Source: a bacterium
GTDB lineage: Bacteria; Eisenbacteria; RBG-16-71-46
NCBI GenBank assembly: GCA_043779265.1
Contig: JAYWEM010000084.1
Location: 1-64,000 of the forward strand
Length of the DNA stretch: 64,000 bases
Reading direction: 5' to 3'
The notes below the pieces were generated by a model that was not told where the DNA came from, did not search any database, and saw only the letters and a program-made list of their open reading frames with translations. This document shows, in pieces, positions 1,327 to 17,825 of this stretch. A program made the position numbers and the translations under genes. How positions within the stretch are numbered: position 1 is the first letter of the stretch; every line of letters begins with the position of its first letter.

Positions 1327-1782
1327 TCAGTCGGCGGGCGGGAACGCCCGCAGCAATCGGCCGTGCTTGGCGCCCTCTTCCAGTGCGATCTCGACCAGGT
1401 GGCCGGGCATGAAGCCGTGGTCTTCGCCGGTCAGTCGGCGCGTGATGGCCGAGACGAGCGGCATGTGGCTGACGACCAGCAGGCGGCCGGTGCCGAGTCC
1501 ATGCGCCTGAAGCGCGAGGAGGGCCTCATCGGCCTCGGAGTCGGGCATCAGATCCGAGACCACCTGGGGTTCGATGCGCGAATCGAGCCCGAGGAGCAGA
1601 CCGGCCATGGTCTGCCGGGCGCGGCGATAGGGGCTGACACAGGCGGCATCCGGCGGTAGGGCCTCGGCCAACAGCCTCGCGGCCAGGCGGCGCACGGCCG
1701 ACTCACCCTCGTGCGTCAGGCTGGCCTCGGCATGCATGCCGTCGGCACGGCCGTGGCGCGCGAGCAGCAGGGTGGAGGTCAT
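1327..1782 (-). CDS. SixA-like histidine phosphatase
   Basis: LLLARHG, SPYRRARQT and VSHMP motifs. True start is the ATG at 1782, inside the long listed ORF. Confidence 0.88.
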   Translation of the reverse strand: MTSTLLLARHGRADGMHAEASLTHEGESAVRRLAARLLAEALPPDAACVSPYRRARQTMAGLLLGLDSRIEPQVVSDLMPDSEADEALLALQAHGLGTGRLLVVSHMPLVSAITRRLTGEDHGFMPGHLVEIALEEGAKHGRLLRAFPPAD

Positions 1783-1914
1783 TCGGGCAGGGTGTCGCGC
1801 TTCGACCGGCCGGGCAAGCGGGGGCCGTTGGTCGTTCGGTTGCCCCCACTCCCGAGCGGCCTCTACCATCATCGCCCCCGACACCCGTTCCTCTCCCAGG
1901 AGATGTCCCTCATA

Positions 1915-4900
1915 ATGAGCCGGTTCCTCGAGACGATCCGCGAGCGCGTGCTGTTCTTCGATGGCGGCATGGGCACGCAGATCCAGGCGCGCGACCTCGG
2001 GCCCGAGGACTTCGGCGGCAAGCGCTGGGAGGGCTGCCTCGACTACCTGTCGGTGACGCGGCCCGACGTGCTGCAGTCGATCCATGAGACCTACTTCGAG
2101 CACGGCGCCGACTGCGTCGAGACCAACTCGTTCCAGGCCTCCAAGCTTCGGCTCGAGGAGTGGGACCTGGGCGATCGCACCATCGAGATCAATCGCGCCG
2201 CGGCTCACAATGCCCGCGTCGTGGCCGACCGACTCACCGCCGCCGACGACCAGCCGCGATTCGTGGCGGGCTCGATGGGCCCCTCGGGATTCCTGCCGTC
2301 CTCCGAGGACGCCGATCTCGGCCAGAAGACGCTGGTCGATCTGGTCGCCTCGTTCGAGGAGCAGGCGGTCGGCCTGATCGAGGGCGGCTCCGATGTGCTG
2401 ATCCTGGAGACGTGCCAGGACATCCTCGAGATGAAGGCGCAGATCCTCGCGTGCCGTGCCGCGATGGCGAGCGTCGGTCGCAAGCTCCCGATCCAGGCTT
2501 CGATCACGCTCGATCCGACGGGCCGCATGCTGCTCGGCACGGATTTTCGCGGCGCACTGGCGACGCTCGAGGCGATGCAGGTGGACGTGATCGGGCTCAA
2601 CTGCTCGACCGGTCCCGACCTGATGCGCGACGCGATCCGCTACCTGTGCGAGAACGCGTCGATGCCGGTGCACTGCATCCCCAATGCCGGCCTGCCGATC
2701 AACGACGGCGGCCGCACGCTCTATCCGATGCGTCCCGAGCCGATGGCCGAGACGCTGCGTGAGTTCGTGCAGGACTTCGGCGTCGGCATCGTGGGCGGAT
2801 GCTGCGGCACCACGCCCGAACACATCCGCGCGCTGGTCGCCGCCATCGGTCGCGGCACCAAGCCGCGCGAGCGAGCGGGCCGCAGCCGCTGGTACGTCTC
2901 CTCGGGCATGACCGCCGTGGCGCTCGAGCAGGAGCCGAGGCCGCTGCTGATCGGCGAGCGGCTCAACACGCAGGGCTCGCGCAAGGTCAAGCGTCTGGCG
3001 CTCGAGAGCGACTACGAGGCGATGCTCCCGATCGCTCGCGACCAGGTCGAGGGCGGCGCGCACGTGCTCGATGTGTGCCTGGCGCTGACCGAGCGCACCG
3101 ACGAGAAGGCGATGATGCGCACGCTCGTCAAGAAGCTATCGCTCTCGGTCGAGGCGCCGCTGTGCATCGACTCGACCGAGGCGGACGTGATCGAGGTCGC
3201 GCTGCAGACCTGCCCCGGCTCGGCCATCGTCAACAGCATCAATCTGGAGAACGGCCGCGAGCGCATCGATGCGGTGATGCCGCTGGTCGTGCGCTACGGC
3301 GCCGCCGTCATCGCCCTGACGATCGACGAGGTCGGCATGGCCAAGACCGCCGCGCGCAAGCTCGAGGTGGCGCGCCGCATCCATGACATTTGCAAGGACG
3401 AGTACGGACTGCCCCCTGAGCGCCTGATCTTCGATGACCTCACGTTCACGCTCGCCACGGGCGATGCCGAGTTCCTCGACTCGGGGATCGAGACCATCGA
3501 GGGCATCCGCATCATCAAGCGCGAACTGCCCGGCGTGCTCACGTCACTCGGCGTCTCCAACGTGTCGTTCGGGCTGGGCAAGGAGGCGCGCGCGGTGCTC
3601 AACAGCGTGTTCCTCTACCATTGCGTCCAGGCCGGCCTCGACATGGCCATCGTCAATCCCGCCGACGTGATCCCGATCGCCGAGCTCTCGGCCGTGGACC
3701 GCAAGCTGGCCGAGGACCTGGTGTTCAACCGAGACCCCCAGGCCCTGGCGCACTACATCACGCACTTCGAGGGGCGTGCACCCGACGCGCGCTCCAAGGA
3801 GGACGATGCCGCCGAGGCGGCGATGAGCGTGGAGCAGAAGCTCCACTTCCAGATCCTGCACCGCAAACCCGCCGGCATCGAGGCGCTGGTCGATGAGGCG
3901 GTCAAGCGGCAGGACCCGGTCGTCGTGCTCAATACCGTTCTGCTGCCGGCGATGAAGGAAGTCGGCGACAAGTTCGGCTCCGGCGAGTTGATCCTGCCGT
4001 TCGTGCTGCAGAGCGCCGAGGTGATGAAGAAGGCGGTGGCTCAACTCGAGCGCTATCTGGAGAAGAGCGGCGATGTGACCAAGGGCCGCGTGGTGCTCGC
4101 CACGGTGTTCGGCGACGTGCACGACATCGGCAAGAACCTGGTCAAGACGATCCTGAGCAACAACGGTTACACCGTCTACGATCTGGGCAAGCAGGTGCCG
4201 GTGCAGCGCATCCTCGAGAAGGCGCAGGAGGTCGGGGCCACCGCCATCGGCCTGTCGGCGTTGCTCGTCTCGACGAGCAAGCAGATGCCGATCTGCGTCG
4301 GCGAGCTGCATCGCCTGAGTCTCGAGTACCCGCTGCTGATCGGCGGCGCGGCGATCAACCGCAACTTCGGGCGGCGTGCCGCGCTGATCGGCGGCGAGGT
4401 TCTGTACGCGCCTGGCGTCTACTACTGCAAGGACGCGTTCGAGGGCCTCGATGTCATGAACGCGCTGACCGACCCAGTGGAGGCTCCCAAGCTGATCGAG
4501 CGTTCCAAGCGCGAGGCGTTCGAGTTCAAGACCAAGTCCGCCGAGTTGGAGCAGCGCGCCGCCGCATCGAGCGCGCAGCAGAAGGACTTCAAGGTCACGG
4601 TCTCGCGCGATGTCACCATCCCGGCGCCGCCGTTCTGGGGCCCGCGCGTCACCACCAGCAAGCAGGTCCCGTTCGCCGGCATGTACGAGGGGATGGACCT
4701 GAAGACCCTGTACCGGCTCCACTGGGGCGCTCGTGGCACGGGAGCGCCGTACGATGCGCTCATCGCCAGCGACTTCGAGCCGCGACGCCTCAAGCTCCAG
4801 CACGAGGCCGAGCACAAGGGCTGGCTGCGGCCGATCGCCTCGTACGGCTACTTCCCGTGCCAGAGCGAGGGCCAGGATCTCGTCGTCTATGACGCGACTG

Positions 4901-5409
4901 CGTTCCACCCTGGCTCGCTCACACCGCGCGGCAAGATCGAGGAAGTGGCGCGATTCACGTTCCCGCGTCAGGAGGACCGAGAGGGGCTTTGCCTTTCGGA
5001 CTACTTCCTGCCGGCGGATGGCTCCAAGTTCGATGTGATCGCGTTCCAGATCGTCACCGTCGGCAGCGGTGCAGATGAACTGTGCGCTGCGCTCAACGCG
5101 CGTGGCGAGTACGCCGACGCGCTGTTCATCCACGGGCTCGCGATGGCCGCCACCGAAGGCCTCGCCGAGTGGCACCACCGCCACATGCGCGCCGAGCTCG
5201 GATTGGGCGCCGACCGCGGCAAGCGCTACTCGTTCGGCTACAGCGCCTGCCCCGATCTGGCCGACCAGGCCAAGCTGTTCCAGCTGCTGCAGCCCGACAC
5301 CTCGATCGGCGTGACGCTGACGAGCGCCTTCCAGCTGGTGCCGGAGGCCTCGACGAGCGCGTTGGTCGTGCACCACCCCGAAGCGCTCTACTACATGGTG
5401 CGCGAGTAG
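1915..5409 (+). CDS. metH: Cobalamin-dependent methionine synthase
   Basis: FFDGGMGT, GLNC, GGCCG, IGERLN, GDVHDIGKN and RYSFGYSACPDL motifs. Start could be 1903 or 1915. Confidence 0.96.
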   Translation: MSRFLETIRERVLFFDGGMGTQIQARDLGPEDFGGKRWEGCLDYLSVTRPDVLQSIHETYFEHGADCVETNSFQASKLRLEEWDLGDRTIEINRAAAHNARVVADRLTAADDQPRFVAGSMGPSGFLPSSEDADLGQKTLVDLVASFEEQAVGLIEGGSDVLILETCQDILEMKAQILACRAAMASVGRKLPIQASITLDPTGRMLLGTDFRGALATLEAMQVDVIGLNCSTGPDLMRDAIRYLCENASMPVHCIPNAGLPINDGGRTLYPMRPEPMAETLREFVQDFGVGIVGGCCGTTPEHIRALVAAIGRGTKPRERAGRSRWYVSSGMTAVALEQEPRPLLIGERLNTQGSRKVKRLALESDYEAMLPIARDQVEGGAHVLDVCLALTERTDEKAMMRTLVKKLSLSVEAPLCIDSTEADVIEVALQTCPGSAIVNSINLENGRERIDAVMPLVVRYGAAVIALTIDEVGMAKTAARKLEVARRIHDICKDEYGLPPERLIFDDLTFTLATGDAEFLDSGIETIEGIRIIKRELPGVLTSLGVSNVSFGLGKEARAVLNSVFLYHCVQAGLDMAIVNPADVIPIAELSAVDRKLAEDLVFNRDPQALAHYITHFEGRAPDARSKEDDAAEAAMSVEQKLHFQILHRKPAGIEALVDEAVKRQDPVVVLNTVLLPAMKEVGDKFGSGELILPFVLQSAEVMKKAVAQLERYLEKSGDVTKGRVVLATVFGDVHDIGKNLVKTILSNNGYTVYDLGKQVPVQRILEKAQEVGATAIGLSALLVSTSKQMPICVGELHRLSLEYPLLIGGAAINRNFGRRAALIGGEVLYAPGVYYCKDAFEGLDVMNALTDPVEAPKLIERSKREAFEFKTKSAELEQRAAASSAQQKDFKVTVSRDVTIPAPPFWGPRVTTSKQVPFAGMYEGMDLKTLYRLHWGARGTGAPYDALIASDFEPRRLKLQHEAEHKGWLRPIASYGYFPCQSEGQDLVVYDATAFHPGSLTPRGKIEEVARFTFPRQEDREGLCLSDYFLPADGSKFDVIAFQIVTVGSGADELCAALNARGEYADALFIHGLAMAATEGLAEWHHRHMRAELGLGADRGKRYSFGYSACPDLADQAKLFQLLQPDTSIGVTLTSAFQLVPEASTSALVVHHPEALYYMVRE

Positions 5410-5440
5410 CGTTTCGGCGCCGCTGCCAGAGGAGCTCGGG

Positions 5441-6037
5441 ATGCCGGGATTCGACGTGGTGCCGGTCACGCTCGAGGGCGAGCACGTTCGCATGGAGCCG
5501 CTCGATCTGGCGCGGCATGGCGCCGGGCTCGAGGCGATCGGGCTCGAGCCCTCGCTGTGGGCGTTCACGATGAACCAGGTCCGGAGCCTCGGGGACCTGC
5601 GCGCCTATCTGCGGACAGCGGTCGATGAACGGCGAGACGGCGTCTCGCTGCCGTTCGCCACGATCCATCGCGCGAGCGGCGAGGTCGCCGGGTGCACCCG
5701 GTTCGGGAGCATCGTCGTGCCGCACCGGCGCGTCGAGATCGGCTGGACCTGGGTGGGCGCCGCATACCGCCGAACCGCCGTCAACACCGAGGCCAAGCGC
5801 CTCATGCTCCGTCACGCCTTCGAGGTCTGGGGCGTGAACCGCGTGGAGCTGAAGACCGGCGCGCTCAACTGGCCGTCCCGCAATGCGATGACGCGGCTGG
5901 GGCTGGTGGAGGAGGGCACGCTGCGCCAACACGTGGTGCAGGACGACGGATCCACGCGCGACAACGTCTACTTCAGCATCGTGCGCGAGGAATGGCCGGC
6001 GATGGACGCACGACTCGCGGCGATGCTCGCGCGCTGA
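5441..6037 (+). CDS. GNAT family N-acetyltransferase (RimJ/RimL type)
   Basis: VEIGWTW, NTEAKRLML.HAFE and EGTLRQH motifs. Confidence 0.9.
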   Translation: MPGFDVVPVTLEGEHVRMEPLDLARHGAGLEAIGLEPSLWAFTMNQVRSLGDLRAYLRTAVDERRDGVSLPFATIHRASGEVAGCTRFGSIVVPHRRVEIGWTWVGAAYRRTAVNTEAKRLMLRHAFEVWGVNRVELKTGALNWPSRNAMTRLGLVEEGTLRQHVVQDDGSTRDNVYFSIVREEWPAMDARLAAMLAR

Positions 6038-6041
6038 TCGC

Positions 6042-9000
6042 TCAGCGACCGGTGGCCACGAACGCGGCCCAGTAGAACGGATGCGTGCTGCGCTTGGCGT
6101 CGCGCCGCGCCGCGAGCACACGCGAGTGCGCGCGGCGGATCGCAGCCGCCGCCTCGGTGACGCCGGCAGCACGCGCGTCGTAGAGCTCGCGCATCCACTC
6201 CCGCGTGGCCGCATCCTCGACGGCCCACAGGCTGGCGATCACCGTGCGCGCACCGCTGAGCTGGAATGCGCGCCGCATTCCCAGCGAGCCCTGATGCGGC
6301 CATTGCGACGCCATGCCGGCGTGGCACGCGGAGAGCACCACCCAGTCGACGGCGCGCAGGTCGAGCAGCGAGACCTCCTCGGCCGTGAGCCAGCCATCGG
6401 AGTCAGCGACCCCGCGGTCTTCGGCGCCAGCCTCACCGGTGAGCGCCAACAGCACACGACGCCCCAGCCAAGGCAGCTCGGCCGGCTCCGGCCGCGTCGG
6501 CTTTGCCAAGACACCCGGATGCCGCCGTGCTGTCGCGGAGGCCTCGACGCGCGACACGCCTCCCACGCCGCGCATCCCCACCGAGGGCGTGCGGCAGGTG
6601 TCCTCGAGTACGACGCCATGGGTCGCCAGGTGCAGGATCGTGCTGCGGGGCGCCTCGCGACGGAACGCCATCTCCGAGGCCTGAGCGCCCACCAGTGCCA
6701 CCGCGTGGCCGCCCCGTTGTGTCCAGGCGAGCGCCAAGTCGGCGACTTCGAGGCGGGCGGACGGCAGTGACTCGAGCCGAGCACGCGTCACGGGCGTGCA
6801 ATCGGACGAGCCATCACGCAGGGCCAAGAGCTCCCCGGTTCGCGAGGCGCGAGCGCCTCTCTCGCCGAACTCGGGATCTCCCAGTGCCAGGAGCTGGCCA
6901 TCGGATCGAGTCGCTGCCGTGCGCAGACGCTCGCGTTCGGACGAGAGCACGCGAAGGGCCGGTCCGGACTCGACGAGGAAGCGCCCCGCGTCGGTGGGAA
7001 GAGCGCCCCAGGGCAGGTCCAACACCAGTCCGTCCTCGACGACGTCGATGTGAGTCGTCGGCCCCAGGGCCGCGACCACCGGGTCCCAGAGCCGCTCGCG
7101 CACCGCCATCCCCGCAGCGCGACACGCTCGCTCTGCGCGGGTCCGCCCCTGCGCCGACTGCGCCGGGCTCGCCTCGAGTTGGTCCCGCCATGCATCGACC
7201 AGCGCGCGCAGTTCGGCCGTCGGTCCGAGGTCGATGCAGCGGGGCGTGCGGTCCTCTCCCGTGGCCAGCAATGCGAGCAGACGCTCGCGGCCTCGCCCGA
7301 TACTCACGTCCGCGAACGAGACGATGGCTTCATCGGAGGCAAGCGTTCCGAGCACACCCTGCAGGCTGGCGGCGGTCTCCGGAGCGCTCGCGCGTTCACC
7401 GGCGAGCCGGACGTAGCGGCGTTCCTCCTCCTCGGCCGTGACGCGAGCTGCATCGGCGCGCTCGCGCCAGGCGGCGCCATGCTCGGCGGCGCCCGGGGCC
7501 ACGATGAGGCGAGCGAGCCGACGTTGCGCCGCTGCCCAGGAGCGATGGGCGTCACGCAGTGCCGGGTCATCGTCTGTGGGGGTTCGCAGTCGCGCGATCT
7601 CGTCCTGGACGGCGCCGCGCCACCCGACGAGCCGGTCCCATGCCGTCGCCAGACGGCCACTCGGTGCGTCGGCGGCGAGCCAGAGCAGGACATCGAGCGA
7701 GCTCGACAGCTGATGCGCGAGCTCGAGTGCGCGGGACTCGGGCATGCCGCGAGCGTCGGAGAGCGCCTTGATGAGCGCCAGCGAGTCGGTCGTGAACGCG
7801 TGCGCCCAAGCGTCCTCCACGAGTCCGACGCGAGCCTCGGCTCGGGCACGCGCCAACTGGACGGACGAGAACACGTTGTTGCGGCGCAATCCGGTCGAGT
7901 CCGCGATGCGCTCGAATGCCATCCCCAGCTCCCGGACTTTCACGGCCTGTCCCGTGACCTCCGACAGTTCGAAGAGCCCCCGCACGAGCTCCGCCCGGAT
8001 CGTGCCGCGTTCATCTTGAGTATGCGAGGCGCGTTCGAGAGCGAGCTCGAGATCCGTGCGCGCCGCATCAGGCTGCGCCCTTCCGGCGCGGATACCGGCG
8101 TGCACATGTCGGATGAACAGCAGGTTCGAGTCGTGGCGAATCGAATCGGCCATCGCGAGCCGGCGCGCCTCCTCGAGGAGCAGGAGCGCACCCGTTGTGT
8201 CCCCGATCATGCTGCGTGCCTCGGCGCGGTAGATCGTGTTGTTGACGGCGAGGAAGTGGTCCGGTCCGAGATTCCGGCTCAGCAATGCGACGGCACGCGC
8301 GAACTCGCGTTCGGCCGCACGCCAGTCGCTGACGAGCGCCAGCCGCAAGCCGAGCAGTGCGTGCAGCCGCCCGACGGCGAGCGTCGAGTCGCCCTCGGCG
8401 CGCCGAGTCAGCTCGAGCGCGCGTTGAGCGAAATCGACGGATTCACTCAGGTCCCCGAGGTTGCGCGCCAGGATCGAGAGGCTGCGGTAGAGAGGACCCA
8501 GAGTCCGCGCATGCGCGATCGGATCGCCCTCGAGGATCTGCCGCGCCTCGTGAAGTGCGGCCAGCGCGCTGTCGTAATCGGCCGCGGCTGTTGCGGCCAC
8601 ACCCAGGTCGGTGAGCATCTCGCCGACGCGCTGCAGGTTCCCGGGACGCGTCCGGTCGAGCATGCTGGCACCGGCTCGCATGCCATGCATCGCGGGCGAC
8701 CACTGACGAAGCATCGCCTGTGCGCGACCCCGCAGGAAGGCGCACTCGCCGCGCAGCGAGTCGTCGTGGATCGCACGCGGCTCGAGCCCGGCGAGCATGA
8801 GGAGCGCGCTGTCGGGCTGTCCCCATCCGATTCGCAGGGCGGCGCCGATCAGACGCATGCGGGCAGCGGTGCTGGCCTGCCCAGGCAGGCGATCATGGAG
8901 TTCCGCTGCGATTCGCACGCTCGCGATCGCTGCATCGCGGCGCGGTGTGCGCCCCGTCCACGCGATTTCGGCACGTTCCCTGTGCACTCTGGCCAGCAGC

Positions 9001-9218
9001 GCGGTGTCGCGGCTGGCCAGCGATGCGAGGTGCGCGAGCAGGTCGCGCGCAAGGCTGTCCGCGAGCACGAGCTGACGAGCCTCTCGCGCTGCACGGATCT
9101 GGCCGAGATCCGGGTCAGCTGCACTCCCACGCGGCGCGAGTAGAAGAAGCCCCATCACGGCCATCAAAGCGAATCGGACACACGTGGTGCGGCGGTGTGT
9201 GCTCCCCGCCCGGGTCAT
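6042..9218 (-). CDS. Secreted TPR-CHAT (caspase-like) protease
   Basis: ATG at 9218 overlaps the kinase stop (ATGA). Signal-like N-terminus, TPR-like helices, catalytic ILHLATHG and VVLSACHAG, terminal HPFYWAAF. Confidence 0.9.
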   Translation of the reverse strand: MTRAGSTHRRTTCVRFALMAVMGLLLLAPRGSAADPDLGQIRAAREARQLVLADSLARDLLAHLASLASRDTALLARVHRERAEIAWTGRTPRRDAAIASVRIAAELHDRLPGQASTAARMRLIGAALRIGWGQPDSALLMLAGLEPRAIHDDSLRGECAFLRGRAQAMLRQWSPAMHGMRAGASMLDRTRPGNLQRVGEMLTDLGVAATAAADYDSALAALHEARQILEGDPIAHARTLGPLYRSLSILARNLGDLSESVDFAQRALELTRRAEGDSTLAVGRLHALLGLRLALVSDWRAAEREFARAVALLSRNLGPDHFLAVNNTIYRAEARSMIGDTTGALLLLEEARRLAMADSIRHDSNLLFIRHVHAGIRAGRAQPDAARTDLELALERASHTQDERGTIRAELVRGLFELSEVTGQAVKVRELGMAFERIADSTGLRRNNVFSSVQLARARAEARVGLVEDAWAHAFTTDSLALIKALSDARGMPESRALELAHQLSSSLDVLLWLAADAPSGRLATAWDRLVGWRGAVQDEIARLRTPTDDDPALRDAHRSWAAAQRRLARLIVAPGAAEHGAAWRERADAARVTAEEEERRYVRLAGERASAPETAASLQGVLGTLASDEAIVSFADVSIGRGRERLLALLATGEDRTPRCIDLGPTAELRALVDAWRDQLEASPAQSAQGRTRAERACRAAGMAVRERLWDPVVAALGPTTHIDVVEDGLVLDLPWGALPTDAGRFLVESGPALRVLSSERERLRTAATRSDGQLLALGDPEFGERGARASRTGELLALRDGSSDCTPVTRARLESLPSARLEVADLALAWTQRGGHAVALVGAQASEMAFRREAPRSTILHLATHGVVLEDTCRTPSVGMRGVGGVSRVEASATARRHPGVLAKPTRPEPAELPWLGRRVLLALTGEAGAEDRGVADSDGWLTAEEVSLLDLRAVDWVVLSACHAGMASQWPHQGSLGMRRAFQLSGARTVIASLWAVEDAATREWMRELYDARAAGVTEAAAAIRRAHSRVLAARRDAKRSTHPFYWAAFVATGR

Positions 9219-10942
9219 CGCACTGGATTCTCCAAGGTCACCTGTCGCACCCACACGCCGCGGACATCGCGTTCGCGGCCGGCGAGCGAGTGGAAGCGGT
9301 CGAACGTCCCGGCGCGCTGCGGTGCGGCATCGGAGGGCACGGCGCTCACGCCGCCGACTCCACGCAGACGCTCGACCGACGCGGCCGGGATCATGGCGTA
9401 GCGAGGCGCGCGGCCGGGCGTGGGCGCGGGCAGGCGCGCCAGCTCGGCCTCCAGCTCCGAGACGGGTTCGAGGCTGGCGATCACCAGGAAGTGCTCGCGT
9501 CCGCCGCGGCTCGTGACGGTCCAGGCACTCACGTCGCCGCCCATGGTGCCGGGGAGCAGGAGCGTGGTGTCGGCGGGCAGCGGATTCTGCAGCTCGAAGA
9601 GCGGCTGCGGGAAGAGCAGATAGGACTCGCCCCGCTCGTCTTCGTTGAGCAAGTAGACATGCGCCGGACGAGTGGCGCGGAACTCGAGCGCCAGCTGGTC
9701 GCCGGGTCCGACACGATCTCCCGTCGAGAGGCGCGCGCGCTGGCCGTCGTTGCGGCGGACGATCGAGGCTTCGAGGTCGAACGTCGGCAGGGCAGTGGAC
9801 ACCGAGGTGGCCGCGGGAATCGGCGCCGGGGCCTTGGCGGGCTGTCGCAGCACGAGCCAGCCCGCGAACACCATGGCGGCTGCGGCCGCGACGGTGAGCA
9901 GCATGCGCACTGGCGAAGGCTCGACGCGAGGTGGCACGAGCGCCATCTCGAGCGCGGTGCCCATCTCCTCGGCGTTGGCGAAGCGCGCCTCGGGCGAAGC
10001 GGCCATCGCGCACTCGATCGTGGCGATGAGCCCGGCGGGGAGGTCGGGGCGTTCCTCGTGCAGCGAGCGCTTGGCGCCCGCGCTCGATTGCTCGCGCAGT
10101 TCTCCCATCGTCCGCGCGGTGAACGGCGGCCTGCCGGTGAGCGCGCACCACAAAGTGACGCCGAGCGCGTACAGGTCGGAGCGCGTCGTGGCCGATTCGC
10201 CCGAGAGCCGCTCCGGTGCCATGAACATGGGTGTGCCCGAGATGCGGAGCGGGTCATCGTCCTGGAGTGCGCGTCGCTGCCCGAGTCCGAAATCGGTGAG
10301 CACGACACGATGCTCCTCGGTGAGCACGACGTTCGCGGGCTTGATGTCGCGGTGCAGCAGGCCGCCGGCGTGCACGGCCGTGAGTGCGCGCGAGATCGCG
10401 ACGCCGATGCGCACGACCTCGGCGGCGGGGAGCGGTCCCATGCGCTCGATCCGCTGCGCCAGATCCTCGCCACGGAGGAACTCCATCCACAGGCCGATCT
10501 GGCCCGCCTCCTCGCCGATTCCGTACACGCTCACCACCTCGGGGTGCCGGAGCCGAGCGAGCGCGCGAGCCTCCTCGAGGAGGGGATGGTCATTCCCCGC
10601 GAGTCCGGGGCGCATCAGCTTGAGCGCCACCTCGCGCTCGAGCGTGGGATCCCACGCTCGATACACCTCGCCGCTCGCGCCCGCGCCGACCTGTTCGAGC
10701 AGGAGCAGCGAACCCCAGCGTCGAGTCCCGGCTGCGGCCGCCGCCAAGGGCGACTTCGAGCCCGATGGGCTCCGTTGCAGCGCGCGATTGAACTCGACGA
10801 TGCGGGCCACGTCACGAAGCGCATCGATCTGCGAGCGCTCGAGTGTGCTGCCCGGACGTTCGCTCTCGGCCTGCCAATCGACCGCGAGGCCCTCGGACAC
10901 CGAGCTGAGAAGCGTGTCGAGCGGATCGTCAGGTGCGCTCAT
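9215..10942 (-). CDS. Membrane Ser/Thr protein kinase with a DUF4384-like extracytoplasmic domain
   Basis: GAGASG, VALK, HRDIKPAN, DFG and MAPE motifs. One TM helix, then GDQLALEF...HVYLLNED..GESYLLFP. Confidence 0.92.
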   Translation of the reverse strand: MSAPDDPLDTLLSSVSEGLAVDWQAESERPGSTLERSQIDALRDVARIVEFNRALQRSPSGSKSPLAAAAAGTRRWGSLLLLEQVGAGASGEVYRAWDPTLEREVALKLMRPGLAGNDHPLLEEARALARLRHPEVVSVYGIGEEAGQIGLWMEFLRGEDLAQRIERMGPLPAAEVVRIGVAISRALTAVHAGGLLHRDIKPANVVLTEEHRVVLTDFGLGQRRALQDDDPLRISGTPMFMAPERLSGESATTRSDLYALGVTLWCALTGRPPFTARTMGELREQSSAGAKRSLHEERPDLPAGLIATIECAMAASPEARFANAEEMGTALEMALVPPRVEPSPVRMLLTVAAAAAMVFAGWLVLRQPAKAPAPIPAATSVSTALPTFDLEASIVRRNDGQRARLSTGDRVGPGDQLALEFRATRPAHVYLLNEDERGESYLLFPQPLFELQNPLPADTTLLLPGTMGGDVSAWTVTSRGGREHFLVIASLEPVSELEAELARLPAPTPGRAPRYAMIPAASVERLRGVGGVSAVPSDAAPQRAGTFDRFHSLAGRERDVRGVWVRQVTLENPVR

Positions 10943-11564
10943 GTCCCATCTCCTCGGCGAGGCGCCGGAGCGCTCGCTTCACGGCCATCCGTACCGCGTC
11001 CCGGCTCGACCGCTCGGTCATGGCGGCGATCTCACCGTGGTCGTAGTCCAACTCGATGTGCAGGTGCAGCAGTTCGCGGTCTTCGGCGCTGAGTGTCTGC
11101 ATCGCGCGCTCGTAGCGATCGACCACGTCGGACCCGATGGCGTCCTCGAGCGGGGACGGGGAGGGGTCGTGCAGATCCTCGGGAAGGCCGTCGGGCCCGG
11201 GCCGCCGATTCGCGTAGCGCACCTGGTCGCGGATCCGATTGAGCACCGCCTGGCGCACATAGGCCTGGAACCCGCCCGGCCCGCGCACCTCGATGCGATC
11301 GAGTCCCTGCACCGTCCGCATCAGGGTCTCCTGCACGAGGTCGTGTGTGTCGAGCAGTGAGCGGGCGCGCGACGGCAGCCGCCCGCTCGCCCAGCGCTGG
11401 AGGCGGGGGAGGTAGCGTGCCATGAGCGACTCGAGCGCCCGCGCATCGCCGGACTTGGCGCGCTGGAGCAGGTCGGTCGTGATGAGCAGGTCGTCCTCGG
11501 GTGAGCCCGAGGAGGGATCAGCGGGCAACAGGGCACCTCGAAGTGAGTCGGGTTCGAATCCCAC
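10929..11564 (-). CDS. ECF sigma-70 factor (kinase-associated type)
   Basis: GDARALESLMARYLPRL, DTHDLVQET, NRIRD and a region-4 EIAAM...AVRMAVKRALRRL. Start uncertain. Confidence 0.9.
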   Translation of the reverse strand: MGFEPDSLRGALLPADPSSGSPEDDLLITTDLLQRAKSGDARALESLMARYLPRLQRWASGRLPSRARSLLDTHDLVQETLMRTVQGLDRIEVRGPGGFQAYVRQAVLNRIRDQVRYANRRPGPDGLPEDLHDPSPSPLEDAIGSDVVDRYERAMQTLSAEDRELLHLHIELDYDHGEIAAMTERSSRDAVRMAVKRALRRLAEEMGHERT

Positions 11565-11699: not shown

Positions 11700-12650
11700 T
11701 CACACGGTCCGCGATTTCCTCGCGATGCCCCTGGCCGCCGAGGCCACCTGCTCGATATGCGTGCGGACAAGCCAATGGCCGGACTCGGGGAAGGTCTCGA
11801 GCGTCAGGCGTCCCGCCCGCGCCAGCGGCGCGGCATTCTCGCGCGACGGCGTGATCCGATCGCCTTCGCCGACCATGACGTGGGCGACGAGGCTCGCGGC
11901 CTTCAGGTCCTCGGTCAGGCGTGCGAGGTCGCCCTCCAGCGCCGCCAGGTTCCCGAGGGACGCCTGGATCTGGATGGGCGAGAGAGGGAACGCCCGGGAG
12001 GCCGACCAGCCACCCGGCACCGGCGCGGGATGCCAGGCATCAGCACGAGTCCCGGGCGATGCGAACCGCCCCACCGGGACACCCAGTGCGAGCACGGCCG
12101 CATCGGCGAACCGACCGAGCCCTGAGAGCCCGACCCAGATGCGCGTACTGCCCGTGACGCGTCCGATCGGGGCCACCGCGAGCACCCCCGCGATGCGATC
12201 GGGAGCATCGAGCGCCGTGCGCAGCACCAGAGCACCGCCATAGCTGTGACCGAGCAGATGCGCTCGCTGCACGCCGAGCGCATCGAGCAGTGAGATCACC
12301 GCGCGCGCCTCGCCGCTCAGGTCCAGTCGGCCCGTGATCGAGCGCCGACTGTGGCCGTGCCCGGGCCGATCCGGGACGATCACGCGGAAGTGGCGGGCGA
12401 GTTCGGAGATCAAGGCCTCGGGGAAGTCGGTCGCGTTGCCGTTCGCGCCATGCAGCAGCACGAGCACGTCGCCTCGGCCCGCCTCGGTCACGTGCCGTGT
12501 GCCATCGACGGTCTCGACCATGCGACCGCGCGGCGGGTAGCGGCGTCGGACCGCGGCGTCATAGGCGAGCCCGATGGCGGCGAGTGCGCCGTACACCACT
12601 CCGGCGATGAGCAGGCCGTTCAAGCGGAACCCGGTTGCGCGACGACCCAC
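11700..12650 (-). CDS. Alpha/beta fold hydrolase with an N-terminal membrane anchor
   Basis: LLHGA, DRPGHG, GHSYGG nucleophile elbow, GEGD and SGHW motifs. Confidence 0.88.
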   Translation of the reverse strand: MGRRATGFRLNGLLIAGVVYGALAAIGLAYDAAVRRRYPPRGRMVETVDGTRHVTEAGRGDVLVLLHGANGNATDFPEALISELARHFRVIVPDRPGHGHSRRSITGRLDLSGEARAVISLLDALGVQRAHLLGHSYGGALVLRTALDAPDRIAGVLAVAPIGRVTGSTRIWVGLSGLGRFADAAVLALGVPVGRFASPGTRADAWHPAPVPGGWSASRAFPLSPIQIQASLGNLAALEGDLARLTEDLKAASLVAHVMVGEGDRITPSRENAAPLARAGRLTLETFPESGHWLVRTHIEQVASAARGIARKSRTV

Positions 12651-12699
12651 CGGAGAGTTGCCCGGTGGGTCGCGTGCGATGCCGTCGGCCGAGCGAAGC

Positions 12700-15438
12700 T
12701 CAAGCGTCGCGCGGGTCGATCACGTCCGTCTCGATCCCGTACTCGCGGATCGCCTTGGCCACGACCGCCGCCTTCACCTTGCCGTCCTGCTGCAGCGCAT
12801 GCAGCGTCGCGACGACCATGTGCTCGGCGTCGATCTCGAAGTGACGGCGCAGCGCCTCGCGCGTGTCGCTGCGACCGAACCCATCGGTGCCGAGCGCGAC
12901 GAAACGATTGGGGATCCAGCGCGCCGGCATGTCGTTGACGGACTTCATCCAATCACTGGTCACGATGACCGGACCCTCGGCCCCCTCGAGCGCCTGCGTC
13001 ACGTAGGGCACGCGCGGCTTCTCGGTCGGGTGCAGACGATTCCAGCGCTCCGCACTCAGCGCATCGGTTCGCAGCAGTGAGTGGCTCGTGACGCTCCACA
13101 CATCGGCCGCGACGCCCCACTTCTCGCCGAGCATCTCCTGCGCCCGCAGCGCCTGCAGCAGGATCGGGCCGCTGCCCCAGAGCTGCGCCTTGAGCGCGTG
13201 CTTGCCCTCGGCCACGCGGTAGCGATAGAGCCCCTTCAGGATGCCCGCTTCGACACCCTCCGGGCGCTTGGGCTGCGCGTAGTCCTGATTGTAGAGCGCC
13301 AAGTAGTAGAAGATGTCCTCGTTGTCGACGTACATGCGACGAAGACCATCCTGCACGATCGTCGCGAGCTCGAAGGCGAATGCCGGATCGTACGAGACGC
13401 AGTTCGGCACGGCCGAGGAGAGCAGCAGGCTGTGGCCATCCTCGTGCTGCAGGCCCTCGCCATTGAGCGTCGTGCGACCGGCAGTGGCGCCCAACAGGAA
13501 GCCGCGACCGCGCGCATCGCCGAACGCCCAGATCAGATCCATGGTCCGCTGGAAGCCGAACATCGAGTAGAAGATGTAGAACGGGATCGTCGTCTGGCCG
13601 TGGGTCGAGTAGCTCGTGCCCGCGGCGGTGAACGACGCCATCGAGCCCGACTCGGTGATGCCCTCTTCGAGCAACTGACCGTCGGCCTTCTCGGTGTAGG
13701 ACAGCACCACCTTGGAGTCGACCGGCTCGTAGCGCTGGCCGAATGGAGCGTAGATCCCGATCTCGCGGAACAGCACTTCCAGGCCGAACGTGCGTGCCTC
13801 GTCGGGGATGATCGGCACGACGCGCTTGCCGTAATCGGCGTCTCGCAGCAGGTTGCGGAGCAGCTTGCCGAACACCATCGTGGTCGAGACCAACTGCTTC
13901 TCGCTGGTGCCGCCGTCGAACTCGGTGAACAGCTTGGCGGGCGCCTCGGGCATGGACTTCGTGCGCACCACGCGCTTGGGGATGCTGCCGCCGAGTGCCT
14001 TGCGGCGCTCGAGCAGGTAGCGCACCTCGGGGCTGTCCGCACCCGGATGGAAGAACGGCGCGTGGTCGAGGTCGCGATCGGCGATCGGCAGCTCCAGGCG
14101 ATCGCGGAACGTGCGCAGTTCCTCGAGGTCCAGCTTCTTCTTCTGGTGCGTCATGTTGCGCGCCTCGGAGGCGGAGCCGAGCGTCCAGCCCTTGACGGTC
14201 TTGGCGAGCACCACCGAGGGGCGGCCCTGTGTCGCAGTGGCCGCCGCGTAGGCGGCGTACACCTTGCGGTAGTCGTGGCCGCCGCGGCGCAGGTGCTTGA
14301 TCTGATCGTCGCTCATCGACTCGACCATCTTGACGAGGCTCGGGTCGCGGCCGAACAGGTGCTCTCGGATGTAGGCGCCGGACTCGACGACGTACTTCTG
14401 CCACTCGCCATCGACGGTCTCGTTCATCGCGTCCACCAGGGCGCCGTCGTAGTCGCGCGCCAGCAGTGTGTCCCACTCGCGCGCCCACACGACCTTGATC
14501 ACGTTCCAGCCGGCACCGGTGAACAGCGCCTCCATCTCCTGGATGATCTTGCCGTTGCCGCGCACCGGGCCGTCGAGTCGCTGCAGGTTGCAGTTGATGA
14601 CGAACGTGAGGTTGTCGAGCCCCTCGCGCGCCGCGACCGTGAGTGCGCCCTGCGCCTCGACCTCGTCCATCTCGCCGTCGCCGAGGAAGGCCCACACGCG
14701 CGAACCCGAGGTGTCGGCGATGCCGCGAGCCGAGAGGTAGCGGTTGTAGCGCGCCTGATAGATGGCGTTGATGGGGCCGAGTCCCATCGAGACGGTGGGG
14801 AACTCCCAGAAGTCCGGCATCAGGCGCGGGTGCGGATAGCTCGAGAGCCCGACCCCGCGCGATTCGCGGCGGAAGTTGTCGAGTTGCGCCTCGGTCAGGC
14901 GCCCCTCGAGGAACGCGCGTGAATAGATGCCGGGGGCGGCATGGCCCTGGAAGAAGATCTGGTCGCCCGAGCTGCCATCGTCCTTGCCACGGAAGAAGTG
15001 GTTGAAGCCCACCTCATAGAGGCTGGCAGCCGACGCATAGGTGGAGAGGTGTCCGCCGAGCCCCGCGTCGCGATGATTGGCACGGATCACCATGACCGCC
15101 GCGTTCCAGCGGATGATGCGGCGGATGCGGAGCTCCATCGCCTCGTCGCCCGGGAACTCCGGCTCCTGCTCGGGCGAGATGGTGTTGATGTAGCGCGACT
15201 GCACCAGCCCCGGCAGCCCGACCTGCAACTGACGGGCGCGCTTGAGCACGCGGCGCAGCAGCCAGTCGGCGCGCTCGGGTCCCTGCGACTCGACCACGCC
15301 GTCCAGCGCGTCCAGCCACTCCTGCGTTTCGGTCTCATCGCCGTCCGGGAGGTGACGCTTGAACCCCGCGAGCAGGTTCAGGTGATAGCGCTCGGTCTCT
15401 CGCCGATCGCTCATGGGAGGCGGGTCCTTGAGGCTCAT
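12700..15438 (-). CDS. aceE: Pyruvate dehydrogenase E1, homodimeric type
   Basis: GGHLSTYAS, SSYPHP, FPTVSMGLG, GDGEMDE, DEARTFG and GEGLQH motifs. AAGGA RBS precedes ATG 15438. Confidence 0.96.
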   Translation of the reverse strand: MSLKDPPPMSDRRETERYHLNLLAGFKRHLPDGDETETQEWLDALDGVVESQGPERADWLLRRVLKRARQLQVGLPGLVQSRYINTISPEQEPEFPGDEAMELRIRRIIRWNAAVMVIRANHRDAGLGGHLSTYASAASLYEVGFNHFFRGKDDGSSGDQIFFQGHAAPGIYSRAFLEGRLTEAQLDNFRRESRGVGLSSYPHPRLMPDFWEFPTVSMGLGPINAIYQARYNRYLSARGIADTSGSRVWAFLGDGEMDEVEAQGALTVAAREGLDNLTFVINCNLQRLDGPVRGNGKIIQEMEALFTGAGWNVIKVVWAREWDTLLARDYDGALVDAMNETVDGEWQKYVVESGAYIREHLFGRDPSLVKMVESMSDDQIKHLRRGGHDYRKVYAAYAAATATQGRPSVVLAKTVKGWTLGSASEARNMTHQKKKLDLEELRTFRDRLELPIADRDLDHAPFFHPGADSPEVRYLLERRKALGGSIPKRVVRTKSMPEAPAKLFTEFDGGTSEKQLVSTTMVFGKLLRNLLRDADYGKRVVPIIPDEARTFGLEVLFREIGIYAPFGQRYEPVDSKVVLSYTEKADGQLLEEGITESGSMASFTAAGTSYSTHGQTTIPFYIFYSMFGFQRTMDLIWAFGDARGRGFLLGATAGRTTLNGEGLQHEDGHSLLLSSAVPNCVSYDPAFAFELATIVQDGLRRMYVDNEDIFYYLALYNQDYAQPKRPEGVEAGILKGLYRYRVAEGKHALKAQLWGSGPILLQALRAQEMLGEKWGVAADVWSVTSHSLLRTDALSAERWNRLHPTEKPRVPYVTQALEGAEGPVIVTSDWMKSVNDMPARWIPNRFVALGTDGFGRSDTREALRRHFEIDAEHMVVATLHALQQDGKVKAAVVAKAIREYGIETDVIDPRDA

Positions 15439-15617
15439 TTCGTGGGTGTCCTTTCGAAACGGCCGAAGTCGCGGCCGGAGCTGCGGGCGAAGCCGCCGCG
15501 GGAGGTCGCGCGGCTTGTGCCCGGGCGGGTGCAAGCGGGCCTGATGGCGGTTCCCTGATCGTCCGGCAGGATAGCGCCCGCGCGAGAGCGGGGCCAAACG
15601 CCCGGGGCCCCTTCTGG

Positions 15618-15795
15618 CCGCATCCGTCGCGATTGCTTTGACCTGCGCGTCTCGTCGTGGTGGCCTGTCGTCTCCGTCGACCCCCTTGCTGCTCCCCGGA
15701 GGCCCCGATGCCCGTCTCTTCGCCCGCACACACCGTCGTCCACCCGGCCCGCAAGGGTCCTCGCCCGATGGCCGCTGGGCGCTCGTGGCGGTTGG
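15618..15795 (+). repeat. Diverged, internally deleted copy of the promoter and 5' end of the S9 peptidase gene (partner at about 17847-18080)
   Basis: Both copies share TTGACC-N17-TGGCCT, CCCGGAGGC and the coding start MPVSSPAHTV(V/I)HPARKGPRPM, plus the DNA encoding SPDGRWALV. This copy lacks 58 bp. Confidence 0.88.
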
Positions 15796-15809
15796 TGAGC
15801 TCGCGATGA
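15708..15809 (+). pseudogene. 33-codon remnant ORF of the S9 peptidase N-terminus
   Basis: Translates MPVSSPAHTVVHPARKGPRPMAAGRSWRLVSSR*. Its TGA overlaps the ATG at 15806. Confidence 0.7.
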
Positions 15810-17825
15810 ACGGCGAAGAGCGCACTGGGCGCGGGCTCGGCCGGATCCGACACTGGCTCCTCGCTCTCCGGCGAGCTGGTCGGCCGATCGCGCTGCTCAT
15901 CCTCGGTGTGTTCGGCGCTCAGTTCGCTCAGGCGCAGTCCGTGGCTCCTTTCGAACGAGTGTGGGGGGGGCGATACGGGCCTGCGCGTGTTCAGCGCGTA
16001 CTCCGTGGCGAGCCATGGGATCGTGGGCGACGGACAGGGCGGAGCCTATGTGGCCGCGAGCCTCTATGAGCCCAGCCTCGCGGATTCGCCCTTCGTCACG
16101 CGGATCCTTCGCGTCGATGCCCAGGGAAACCCGCATAGCGGTTGGCCTGCGGGAGGACTCGTGCTCCACCGGAACGAGTCGTACGCCCCCTGGTTCGACC
16201 AACTGATCATCAGGCGCTCCCAGAATGGGAGCCTCTCCGTGAACGGCACGAAGCGCAGACACGGACAAGATCGGCTGGAGGCGATGGTGGTGGAGGATCC
16301 GGCGCCTCGAGTTGCCTGGGCGTCGTTCGATCGGAGACCCACTCAGCGGTTCGATCGCAGATTCGTACCCACGCCGAGTGGCGATTGGTGGTCGCTCACC
16401 TTCGAATTCGACTCGCTCACCGTGCGACTGCGCAGGCCCAACGGCTCACCCGCACCGGGCTGGCCTGCGAGTGGTGTCTGCATCGACCGCGCCAGCCCCT
16501 CCGGAGTCACTCGCGAAGTCACCAGTCATTGGGAACCGCGAGTACTTCCCGACGGACGGATCGGGATCCTCTATGAGAGCCTGGAGTATCCGCCCGGCCC
16601 GAGCGTGAGAAAGCTCCATTTGGTGAGGATCAGCCCATCCGGCGCAGCTATCGAACGCGATTCGTTGCCTCTCACGCCTTGGTTGGGCCGGCTCCGATCA
16701 TGGACCACCGACGAGGTCGGGAGACCACTGCTCACATGGTCCGATATGAACAATCTGCAGGCTACCGGTCTCCAATGGGACGGTGCACGGCGTTGGTCCG
16801 ATGCGCTGTACCCCGACTCGAGCTTCAACCTCTCGCTCGAGGCCTTCGCTGCTCCTGACGGAAACGGCGGGGCCTACATCGCTCACACCACCGAGGCTCC
16901 CTCGGAGTGGCTGTCGCAACTCCGATTGCTCCATCGGCAGGACGACGGCACGCTCGCTGTGGGCATCTATGCGCTCACTCCGATTCCCGGGACCACTCCC
17001 TTCGTAAGCAGTGCCTTCCGAGTCTGGGGGGACGCGCTGGGCCGCGCGGTGCTTTGTCTGCATTGCGATGGAGAGAGCTCATTCGGGGCGCGCGGGGCGC
17101 CCCGGTTGCTGATCGTGGATTCGGACGGTCAGTTCGCCGGCTCCGATCCGGAGGGCACCAAGGTGTTCCCTGTGGGCTTCTACAGCTCGTTCCGTCTTGA
17201 GTCCGATTCCAATGGGGATGTGTTCGCGTCCTGCCTCGAGTTGGATGCAAGTGGCACGGCGAGGCATGTGATCGCGCAGCGCATGCACGCCGACCAACCG
17301 GTGGCGACGCTCGCCTCGCGCGTCTCGGGCGGGCGCGTTCGTGGCGGGGTTGAGCTGACGTGGCAACTGAGCGGCGACGCCGCGACCGTGGCGCTCGTCG
17401 AGCGCAGCGTGGGCGACATGCCGTACGAGGCGTTCGCGTCACTGGCGCCGGATGGCGACGGGCGTGTACGCGTGCTCGACCTCGCTGCGCCGAGCGAGGC
17501 CCGCTTGCGCTACCGACTGTCGGTCGCGGGGCTGGTGCTCGACATCTGGGAGCTGACAGCGCACAGCCCGCCGGGGTTGTCGTTGGCACTCGGGCGCACC
17601 ACTGACGGCGAGGTGGCCGCGCGGATCACGCTCGAGGGCGTTGGCGATGCCCGGCTCGACGTGTTCGACGTGGCGGGACGACTCCAGCGCAGCGAGGACC
17701 TGAGCGACCGAGGCGCCGGCACACATGAGTTGGCGCTCCCCGGAGCCGGCCCGCCCGGGCTGCGGCTCGTGCGGCTGCGAGAGGGCGGAGCGCAGCGGGT
17801 CGTGCGGTACGCGAGCCTGCGCTGA
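15806..17825 (+). CDS. Secreted beta-rich protein with an FlgD-like C-terminal domain, frameshifted at a G8 tract (15963-15970)
   Basis: The signal peptide (..LLILGVFGAQFAQAQ) is in one frame and the body (DGQGGAY, GWPAGG, LDVFDVAGR) in another. Removing one G joins them as VWGGDTGLRV. Confidence 0.72.

Follow-up and report, generated by a model that had tools for sequence, protein, structure and literature searches.

Among the closest described systems, the Craspase arm (Csx29, Csx30 and CASP-sigma) combines a protease of TPR-CHAT fold with a linked extracytoplasmic function (ECF) sigma factor, cuts its partner in the C-terminal domain, at a flexible loop, and includes one group of Csx30 proteins whose C-terminal domain is DUF4384 (bioRxiv 2022.08.17.504292; PMC10028731; PMC9729208). 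In DdvA-DdvS of Myxococcus xanthus, an extracytoplasmic TPR-CHAT protein controls an ECF sigma factor, and proteolysis of a membrane-proximal linker has been proposed (PMC11506125). The ECF43 modules EcfP-PknT and EcfK-PknS place an ECF gene beside a Ser/Thr kinase gene without an anti-sigma factor in the module, and an invariant Thr lies in a region 2.2 motif (PMC8999054). Caspase-fold proteases, a sigma factor and a kinase share one cluster in the SAVED-CHAT/PCaspase/PCc-sigma/PCk cascade of Haliangium, for which proteolytic activation of the kinase was hypothesized (bioRxiv 2023.06.23.546230), and separase is an Arg-specific relative of CHAT with self-cleavage and inhibitory loops (PMC10317155). 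A three-gene module that resembles these systems in the respects named is located in a 64,000-nucleotide stretch of Eisenbacteria DNA (lineage RBG-16-71-46; assembly GCA_043779265.1, contig JAYWEM010000084.1, positions 1 to 64,000), hereafter the window. Its genes, all on the minus strand and with overlapping ends, encode an ECF sigma factor, a Ser/Thr kinase with a transmembrane segment and a DUF4384 ectodomain, and a TPR-CHAT protease that is predicted to be exported. The kinase and the protease both contain the heptapeptide RGVGGVS.

The shared heptapeptide and its co-evolution

The protease copy (residues 883-889; 6552..6572) is found in the loop past the catalytic His of the CHAT domain, beginning 16 residues after His867 (6618..6620), and the kinase copy (residues 527-533; 9344..9364) lies at the end of a helix that enters a predicted disordered loop. 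The first-pass annotation had placed both copies correctly and had also noted that 5 of the 7 codons differ between them. The word occurs exactly twice in the six-frame translation of the genome and is the sole 7-residue word common to the two proteins. Shuffled protein pairs, however, share a word of at least seven residues in 278 of 20000 trials (1.4%), so that the match at this single locus is only modestly above chance and its real support is comparative. Likewise, identity at all seven positions is not special to this locus; it marks the upper extreme of a pattern seen across the family, R-G-[VI]-G-G-[LV]. The likeness of R-G-V-G-G to a trypsin activation site is presumably unrelated and was set aside.

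Related loci were obtained from a protein search (160 loci, comprising the best 80 of 93 genomic and the best 80 of 167 metagenomic matches), and 100 more regions were taken from genome searches. The 267 ectodomain matches include 255 that span the site and 227 that are distinct, and the motif Arg is present in 226 of the latter. The kinase queries contained the motif, which may have raised its apparent conservation on the kinase side slightly; presence of the motif played no part in choosing the CHATs. Among distinct neighboring CHATs with the His motif, 114 of 119 possess the Arg, and the five that do not are three proteins from another CHAT clade, in which the loop is missing, and two that are truncated at the locus edge. 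Gly follows the Arg at position +1 in 325 of 333 ectodomains. A profile search returned 799 clusters at E 1e-30, with the motif in 148 of the best 150, while neighboring frames contain it only 8 times in 558191 residues. The ectodomain is present in 84 of 206 genomes of the source phylum and in 15 of 401 sampled genomes of the phylum of another match, tallies that take in two genomes marked unpublished (G073 and G360), which enter no other statement by handle. Titled records are chiefly from Eisenbacteria, Krumholzibacteria and Acidobacteriota. The source genome itself encodes four kinase-DUF4384 proteins, all motif-bearing, three of which are followed by a motif-bearing CHAT gene; the fourth stops close to the edge of its contig.

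Pairs that required the Arg in both partners numbered 115, or 108 after duplicate removal. The CHAT gene lies downstream of the kinase gene in 63 of these, divergent in 22, upstream in 15 and convergent in 8, an ECF gene was found at 102 of the loci, and the kinase catalytic loop pattern is present in 101. Over the seven residues after the Arg, cognate partners share 4.49 residues compared with 3.37 in shuffled pairs, a difference reached in 0 of 20000 shuffles, and identical heptamers occur in 17 of the 108 cognate pairs versus 1.2% of non-cognate combinations. The copies co-vary in register after the Arg also among 54 independent sister pairs drawn from a tree built without the motifs, where the cognate-minus-swapped sum was T=60 (22 positive, 5 negative, 27 zero; p=0.0008). 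The maximum in control windows (n=56862) was 23, shifted registers gave at most 9, and the eight residues before the Arg gave a sum of -8, i.e., no co-variation. Rare variants are matched in both partners, such as Glu-Ile-Gly at +4 to +6 (L108), Ala at +3 (L153), Thr at +3 (L066) and Ser at +1 (L243), although counter-examples exist (e.g., L229 and L242). In same-genome paralogues the cognate partner was favored in 22 of 23 comparisons. Since such paralogues are far apart on the tree as well, the result fits insulation of parallel modules without proving it. The proposal in the first-pass annotation of a code that pairs each protease with its receptor, for which co-variation across homologous operons was the suggested check, is thereby supported, in that the two copies co-vary and resemble such a code.

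It is extremely improbable that this pattern arose by chance, composition bias, shared ancestry or gene conversion. Such an origin could draw on the unimpressive shuffle probability at the single locus and on the frequency of Gly, Val and Arg in GC-rich genes, but it is opposed by the low background rate of the motif and contradicted by the tree-independent and control-window tests. Moreover, locus GC content is equal for Val and Ile variants, and codon identity at shared residues is 0.455 in cognate pairs, 0.433 in non-cognate pairs and 0.49 in swapped sisters. Since cognate codons are no more alike than those of swapped sisters, DNA copying is excluded, and the earlier reading of the differing codons as selection on the peptide rather than on DNA is upheld. 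Codon, GC and tree-independent tests thus reject gene conversion, GC bias and shared ancestry alike. The motif is real, conserved and co-evolving, and the comparisons indicate that the two copies are kept alike by selection on the protein.

Candidate receptor surface for the peptide

The kinase (575 amino acids; 9215..10942) has Pfam matches to Pkinase at residues 82-282 and to DUF4384 at residues 413-493, separated by a hydrophobic segment from residue 343. The DUF4384 domain (9464..9706) is Ig-like and was modeled as a beta sandwich with a predicted local distance difference test (pLDDT) score of 85. In an alignment of 378 ectodomains, V529 (+2) and F485 form the second strongest long-range coupling (z 7.7), and G531 (+4) is coupled to T477 (z 4.6); couplings of S533 (+6) to T475 and of G530 to Y441 were also detected. 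The pattern at the first pair is steric, with Val accompanied by Phe485 in 146 of 164 cases and Ile by Leu, Val or Ile in 110 of 142, and non-Gly residues at +4 mostly pair with Ser477. Both couplings recur in 166 sister pairs (Fisher p 2.5e-6 for V529-F485 and p 5e-6 for G531-T477), where the top partners are F485, L417 and N433 for V529 and T477 for G531. Following correction for divergence, G531-T477 scores 4.5 against a background maximum of 3.8 (of 2838). In sequence, the coupled pocket residues adjoin D435, W474 and E483, which are near-invariant (332, 333 and 331 of 333 ectodomains, respectively). Together, the couplings outline a candidate peptide groove composed of N433-D435, W474-T477, E483 and F485, with L417 just upstream (9488..9646), and the variable motif residues appear to complement sterically those at one end of the sandwich.

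The protease copy tracks the same surface. The paired alignment shows it coupled with the kinase copy and, on the kinase, with the pocket residues named above (V885-F485, z 4.9); its +4 position ranks T477 first of 154 columns. Kinase F485 is predicted equally by V885 of the CHAT and V529 of the kinase (uncorrected p 3e-13 and 4e-13, respectively), and the disagreements between the two predictors split 9 versus 8. Because the motif couples to the DUF4384 pocket and the protease copy follows the same residues, the ectodomain is more likely to be the reader than the protease active site. The two peptides are very probably read by one common site, this site is likely DUF4384, and a groove on that domain may bind both.

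An alternative is that the CHAT active site reads the motif through a P1 Arg and prime-side subsites. In this view the CHAT loop would serve for autoprocessing or as a pseudosubstrate, the kinase loop would be the substrate, and co-variation would follow the protease subsites. The invariant Arg, the small residue at +1 and the disordered loops all agree with this, as do the self-cleavage sites and autoinhibitory loops of separase (PMC10317155) and the dependence of a Runella CHAT on prime-side residues. It is nevertheless unlikely, for the P-side signal is not shared, the motif couplings point to DUF4384 while none stands out on the CHAT, and eight CHATs of the same clade lack the motif, which indicates that the enzyme does not generally require it. 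The first-pass interpretation of the shared peptide as a plain protease recognition site is therefore not supported in that form, since sharing is confined to residues past the Arg; the other part of that interpretation, a probable cut after Arg, is retained below.

Predicted structures and protease chemistry

The ectodomain model shows a helix that terminates at R527-G528 and a disordered stretch over residues 530-544, after which the last strands (residues 556-572; 9227..9277; AlphaFold2 strands at ectodomain positions 172-188) are predicted to fold back into the sandwich. A fold search returned Ig-like matches only, spanning positions 4-190, with a best Z of 7.7 and none of at least 8. If the loop were cut, the returning C-terminal strands would keep the peptide tethered. 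In the CHAT model (pLDDT 87) the motif opens a disordered loop, in which residues 887-916 are below pLDDT 50, so that both motif copies lie at predicted disordered loops. The best fold match of this model is Csx29 (8eey), and separase and DdvA were matched as well. A complex prediction for CHAT residues 259-1058 and the ectodomain gave a score of 0.01, which counts neither way.

The TPR-CHAT protein (1058 amino acids; 6042..9218) has a hydrophobic segment at residue 12, and TPR (TPR_12) and CHAT (PF12770; residues 702-1057; 158 bits versus a cut-off of 24) are its only domain matches. The catalytic residues His867 and Cys965 (6324..6326) are both present in 86 of 86 aligned homologues, rows that had been chosen with the Cys present, and the Cys is found in 111 of 119 neighboring CHATs, the other 8 being gaps. 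Besides this dyad, Asp1002 (6213..6215; 86 of 86) and Glu824 are invariant. Asp2151/Asp2070 of separase binds the P1 Arg (PMC10317155), and the Leu-cutting Craspase has Lys instead. By its spacing, 37 residues past Cys965, and by motif, Asp1002 is a candidate for the equivalent S1 acid; when solved structures were searched with the CHAT-domain profile, nothing was returned at E 10, which left Asp1002 unaligned to separase. Judged from these residues, Arg-directed cutting by the CHAT is plausible. Overall, cleavage at the motif Arg is reasonably likely.

A second disordered loop of the CHAT model (6798..6818) contains R801, a less conserved Arg (59 of 86 homologues), and Cys807. Homologues often read F/Y-R-G-x-R-x-x-C in this loop, which is a possible extra processing site. 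Cys807 and Cys875 (6594-6596), which flank the CHAT loops, are both present in 63 of the 86 homologues and both absent in 23, with neither occurring alone, and because they are present together or not at all a disulfide between them is probable. Hydrophobic segments precede the ectodomain in 104 of 106 kinases and stand at the start of 66 of 83 CHATs. Export is thus predicted, and both motifs are probably outside the cytoplasm.

It is very unlikely that some other Arg-specific protease makes the cut and that the CHAT is mainly a ligand carrier. A clostripain-family (C11) gene does adjoin 14 of the 108 loci, and subtilase genes adjoin 5, but no such neighbors were found at most loci, including the source locus, and the CHAT dyad is conserved. 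The C11 genes occur at L044, L049, L060, L061, L063, L067, L071, L138, L155, L158, L166, L167, L170 and L254, and two of the 14 encode repeated short units at the C-terminus.

A possible signaling mechanism

The most likely of the explanations considered, though short of even odds, has cleavage at the Arg unmask new N-termini that bind the DUF4384 groove and switch the kinase, which then phosphorylates an invariant Thr of the sigma factor. A signal would activate the protease via its TPR part, and the protease would cleave its own loop and that of the kinase, in each case directly behind the Arg. The new N-termini, G-V-G-G-V-S, would then bind the groove, the kinase copy staying tethered by the last strand and the protease copy binding in trans, and occupancy, exchange or cross-linking of grooves would alter kinase activity. 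The output would be phosphorylation of the sigma factor (10929..11564; Pfam Sigma70_r2 and r4_2; start uncertain, GTG at 11564 or TTG at 11528) at the Thr of a D-T-x-D motif in region 2.2 (Thr61; codon 11346-11348). The first position of this motif is Asp in 151 and Glu in 15 proteins, and the Thr and the last Asp are each present in 176 of 176, so the Thr is a candidate phosphorylation site. Co-evolution of the groove with its peptides would keep paralogous modules of the same cell partly insulated from one another. The suggestion in the first-pass annotation of a tethered ligand, exposed by a putative cut, gains support, as the predicted topology and the couplings fit it. Taken as a whole, the reading of DUF4384 as a receptor for Arg-cut N-termini, with the kinase carrying its own tethered ligand, the processed protease supplying a second copy, and the code insulating modules, is possible but somewhat doubtful.

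Several observations weigh against this reading. The divergence-corrected score of V529-F485 is 3.4, below the background maximum. In the tree-controlled test of 54 pairs, F485 was not among the top four partners of CHAT +2, and the CHAT-side couplings reached 3.0-3.7, which is at noise level and leaves room for their existence. R-G-V (527-529) is above pLDDT 50 in the ectodomain model and may pack on the domain without cutting. Characterized bacterial CHATs cleave after Leu or Met, not Arg. EcfP is phosphorylated at position 3 of a DAED-type motif (PMC8999054), unlike the sigma Thr here, which is at position 2. Lastly, the invariant Arg and the acids D435 and E483 fit an uncut, salt-bridged loop equally well.

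This last point belongs to a different explanation, in which the uncut kinase loop, including its Arg, docks in its own DUF4384 groove at rest and the intact CHAT loop displaces it by strand exchange; displacement would signal directly or expose the kinase to cutting at the motif or another site. Such mimicry accounts for the same pocket couplings, the invariant acids could hold the Arg, and CHATs without a kinase partner also lack the loop motif. It is rather unlikely, as the near-constant Gly at +1 and the sharp boundary of co-variation at the Arg resemble a processed N-terminus and every complete partner protease retains its dyad.

Unlinked and motif-less CHATs

Forty extra CHAT loci away from known kinase loci were picked among the matches listed, and 33 of them carry the motif. 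When lone kinases and lone CHATs of the same genome were compared by eye, two combinations had nine identical residues (L268/L304 and L195/L299), two had seven, including a rare +4 residue (L197/L297 and L216/L293), and one, about 540 kb apart on one contig, was alike at 8 of 10 (L230/L308). Four others matched poorly or only at the level of the consensus (L199/L286, L270/L280, L249/L290 and L248/L288). Contig breaks can mimic the separation of kinase and CHAT (L291).

In 4 of the 7 loci without the motif (L302, L305, L306 and L314), an ECF gene directly precedes the CHAT gene and the fetched stretch contains no kinase-DUF4384 gene. The source genome has the same arrangement at G000:C10:3111-6391, where an ECF gene is followed by a same-clade TPR-CHAT without the loop motif and with no kinase-DUF4384 gene. 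The motif-less CHATs fall within a well-supported clade of motif carriers, in a quick tree whose backbone is weak and which forces only two motif changes; L258, labeled motif-less on that tree, was labeled wrongly and carries the motif. In the L198-L204 set, from genomes of family f18, kinase-DUF4384 proteins keep the motif and no ECF or CHAT was detected in the fetched stretch. At G000:C12:2293-6188, an ECF gene, a zinc-finger-like anti-sigma gene with DUF4384 and a convergent CHAT gene of another clade occur together, with Arg-Gly motifs placed elsewhere, just before DUF4384 in the anti-sigma and in a C-terminal loop of the CHAT.

Other features of the loci

An ATGA overlap joins the kinase stop to the TPR-CHAT start. 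By eye, open reading frames in the flanks (1711-6037 and 11700-15900) resemble methionine synthase, acetyltransferase, alpha/beta hydrolase and pyruvate dehydrogenase E1. The CHAT and the sigma factor have no PADLOC match, and the sigma factor exceeds its NCBIfam cut-off only at the level of the ECF superfamily. Identification of the kinase as PD-T4-6 or MAD6 was rejected because the matches cover the generic kinase domain only, with NCBIfam scores below the cut-offs and no PADLOC match. Kinase or CHAT genes are split over two frames at L041, L043, L055, L079 and L253, reflecting sequencing error or pseudogenes.

A fourth universal gene of the module was considered and rejected, as the members of the largest neighbor cluster group only through a FlgD-Ig domain that they have in common at the C-terminus. 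Small FlgD-Ig proteins adjoin many modules, as do long proteins with a shared C-terminal domain that gave no Pfam match in the representatives scanned (L075, L090, L191, L192, L196, L224, L269 and G000:C96 for the two kinds together). It is possible that both are regulon members. No Cas proteins were found among the 7 recurrent neighbor clusters scanned.

Comparison with described systems

Despite its similarities to Craspase, no CRISPR effector was found beside loci of the module, and the Type III-E linkage (Cas7-11/gRAMP, Csx30, Csx31) was not detected at the source locus, where PADLOC matches neither the CHAT nor the sigma factor and the flanking frames resemble genes for housekeeping enzymes. 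The Craspase protease is cytoplasmic, whereas the N-terminal hydrophobic segment and probable disulfide of the protease here predict export. In addition, the partner here is a membrane kinase rather than an anti-sigma factor, Craspase cuts after Met or Leu, and the available text describes no matched peptide in its protease. DdvA fuses a zinc anti-sigma, a membrane helix and the TPR-CHAT protease in one chain; here the protease has a short signal-like start and is separate from the receptor, and the cytoplasmic output is a kinase. As in ECF43, the kinase gene is adjacent and an anti-sigma gene is missing, but D-T-x-D keeps both acids, in contrast to STTA with its third-position Thr, the Thr is at another position, and a protease partner and DUF4384 sensor are added. 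The Haliangium cascade differs in being cytoplasmic, nucleotide-triggered and CRISPR-linked, without a DUF4384 receptor as far as described, and separase differs in that P-side residues are read (ExxR) (PMC10317155).

Neither the module nor its motif was found in the literature on DUF4384, on CHAT-ECF-kinase combinations or on bacterial tethered ligands, a search whose scope excluded subscription papers and the ECF classification supplements. What appears to be new is the coupling of variable motif residues to a DUF4384 pocket together with a protease copy that tracks the same residues. For DUF4384, a domain without known function, this puts forward a candidate ligand along with a candidate groove to bind it; for an extracytoplasmic CHAT, it gives exact predicted cut sites, where the question of substrate is open even for DdvA. 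The natural variants form a ready set of matched protease-receptor pairs, and the arrangement offers a possible route from envelope proteolysis to sigma-factor phosphorylation. In animals, the protease-activated receptors, which are unrelated G protein-coupled receptors, are cut after an Arg to unmask a tethered ligand. The likeness would be of logic only, and if the tethered-ligand model is true, bacteria use that logic as well. Overall, the comparison suggests that the module may be a new form of protease-gated ECF signaling in which a kinase is the receptor.

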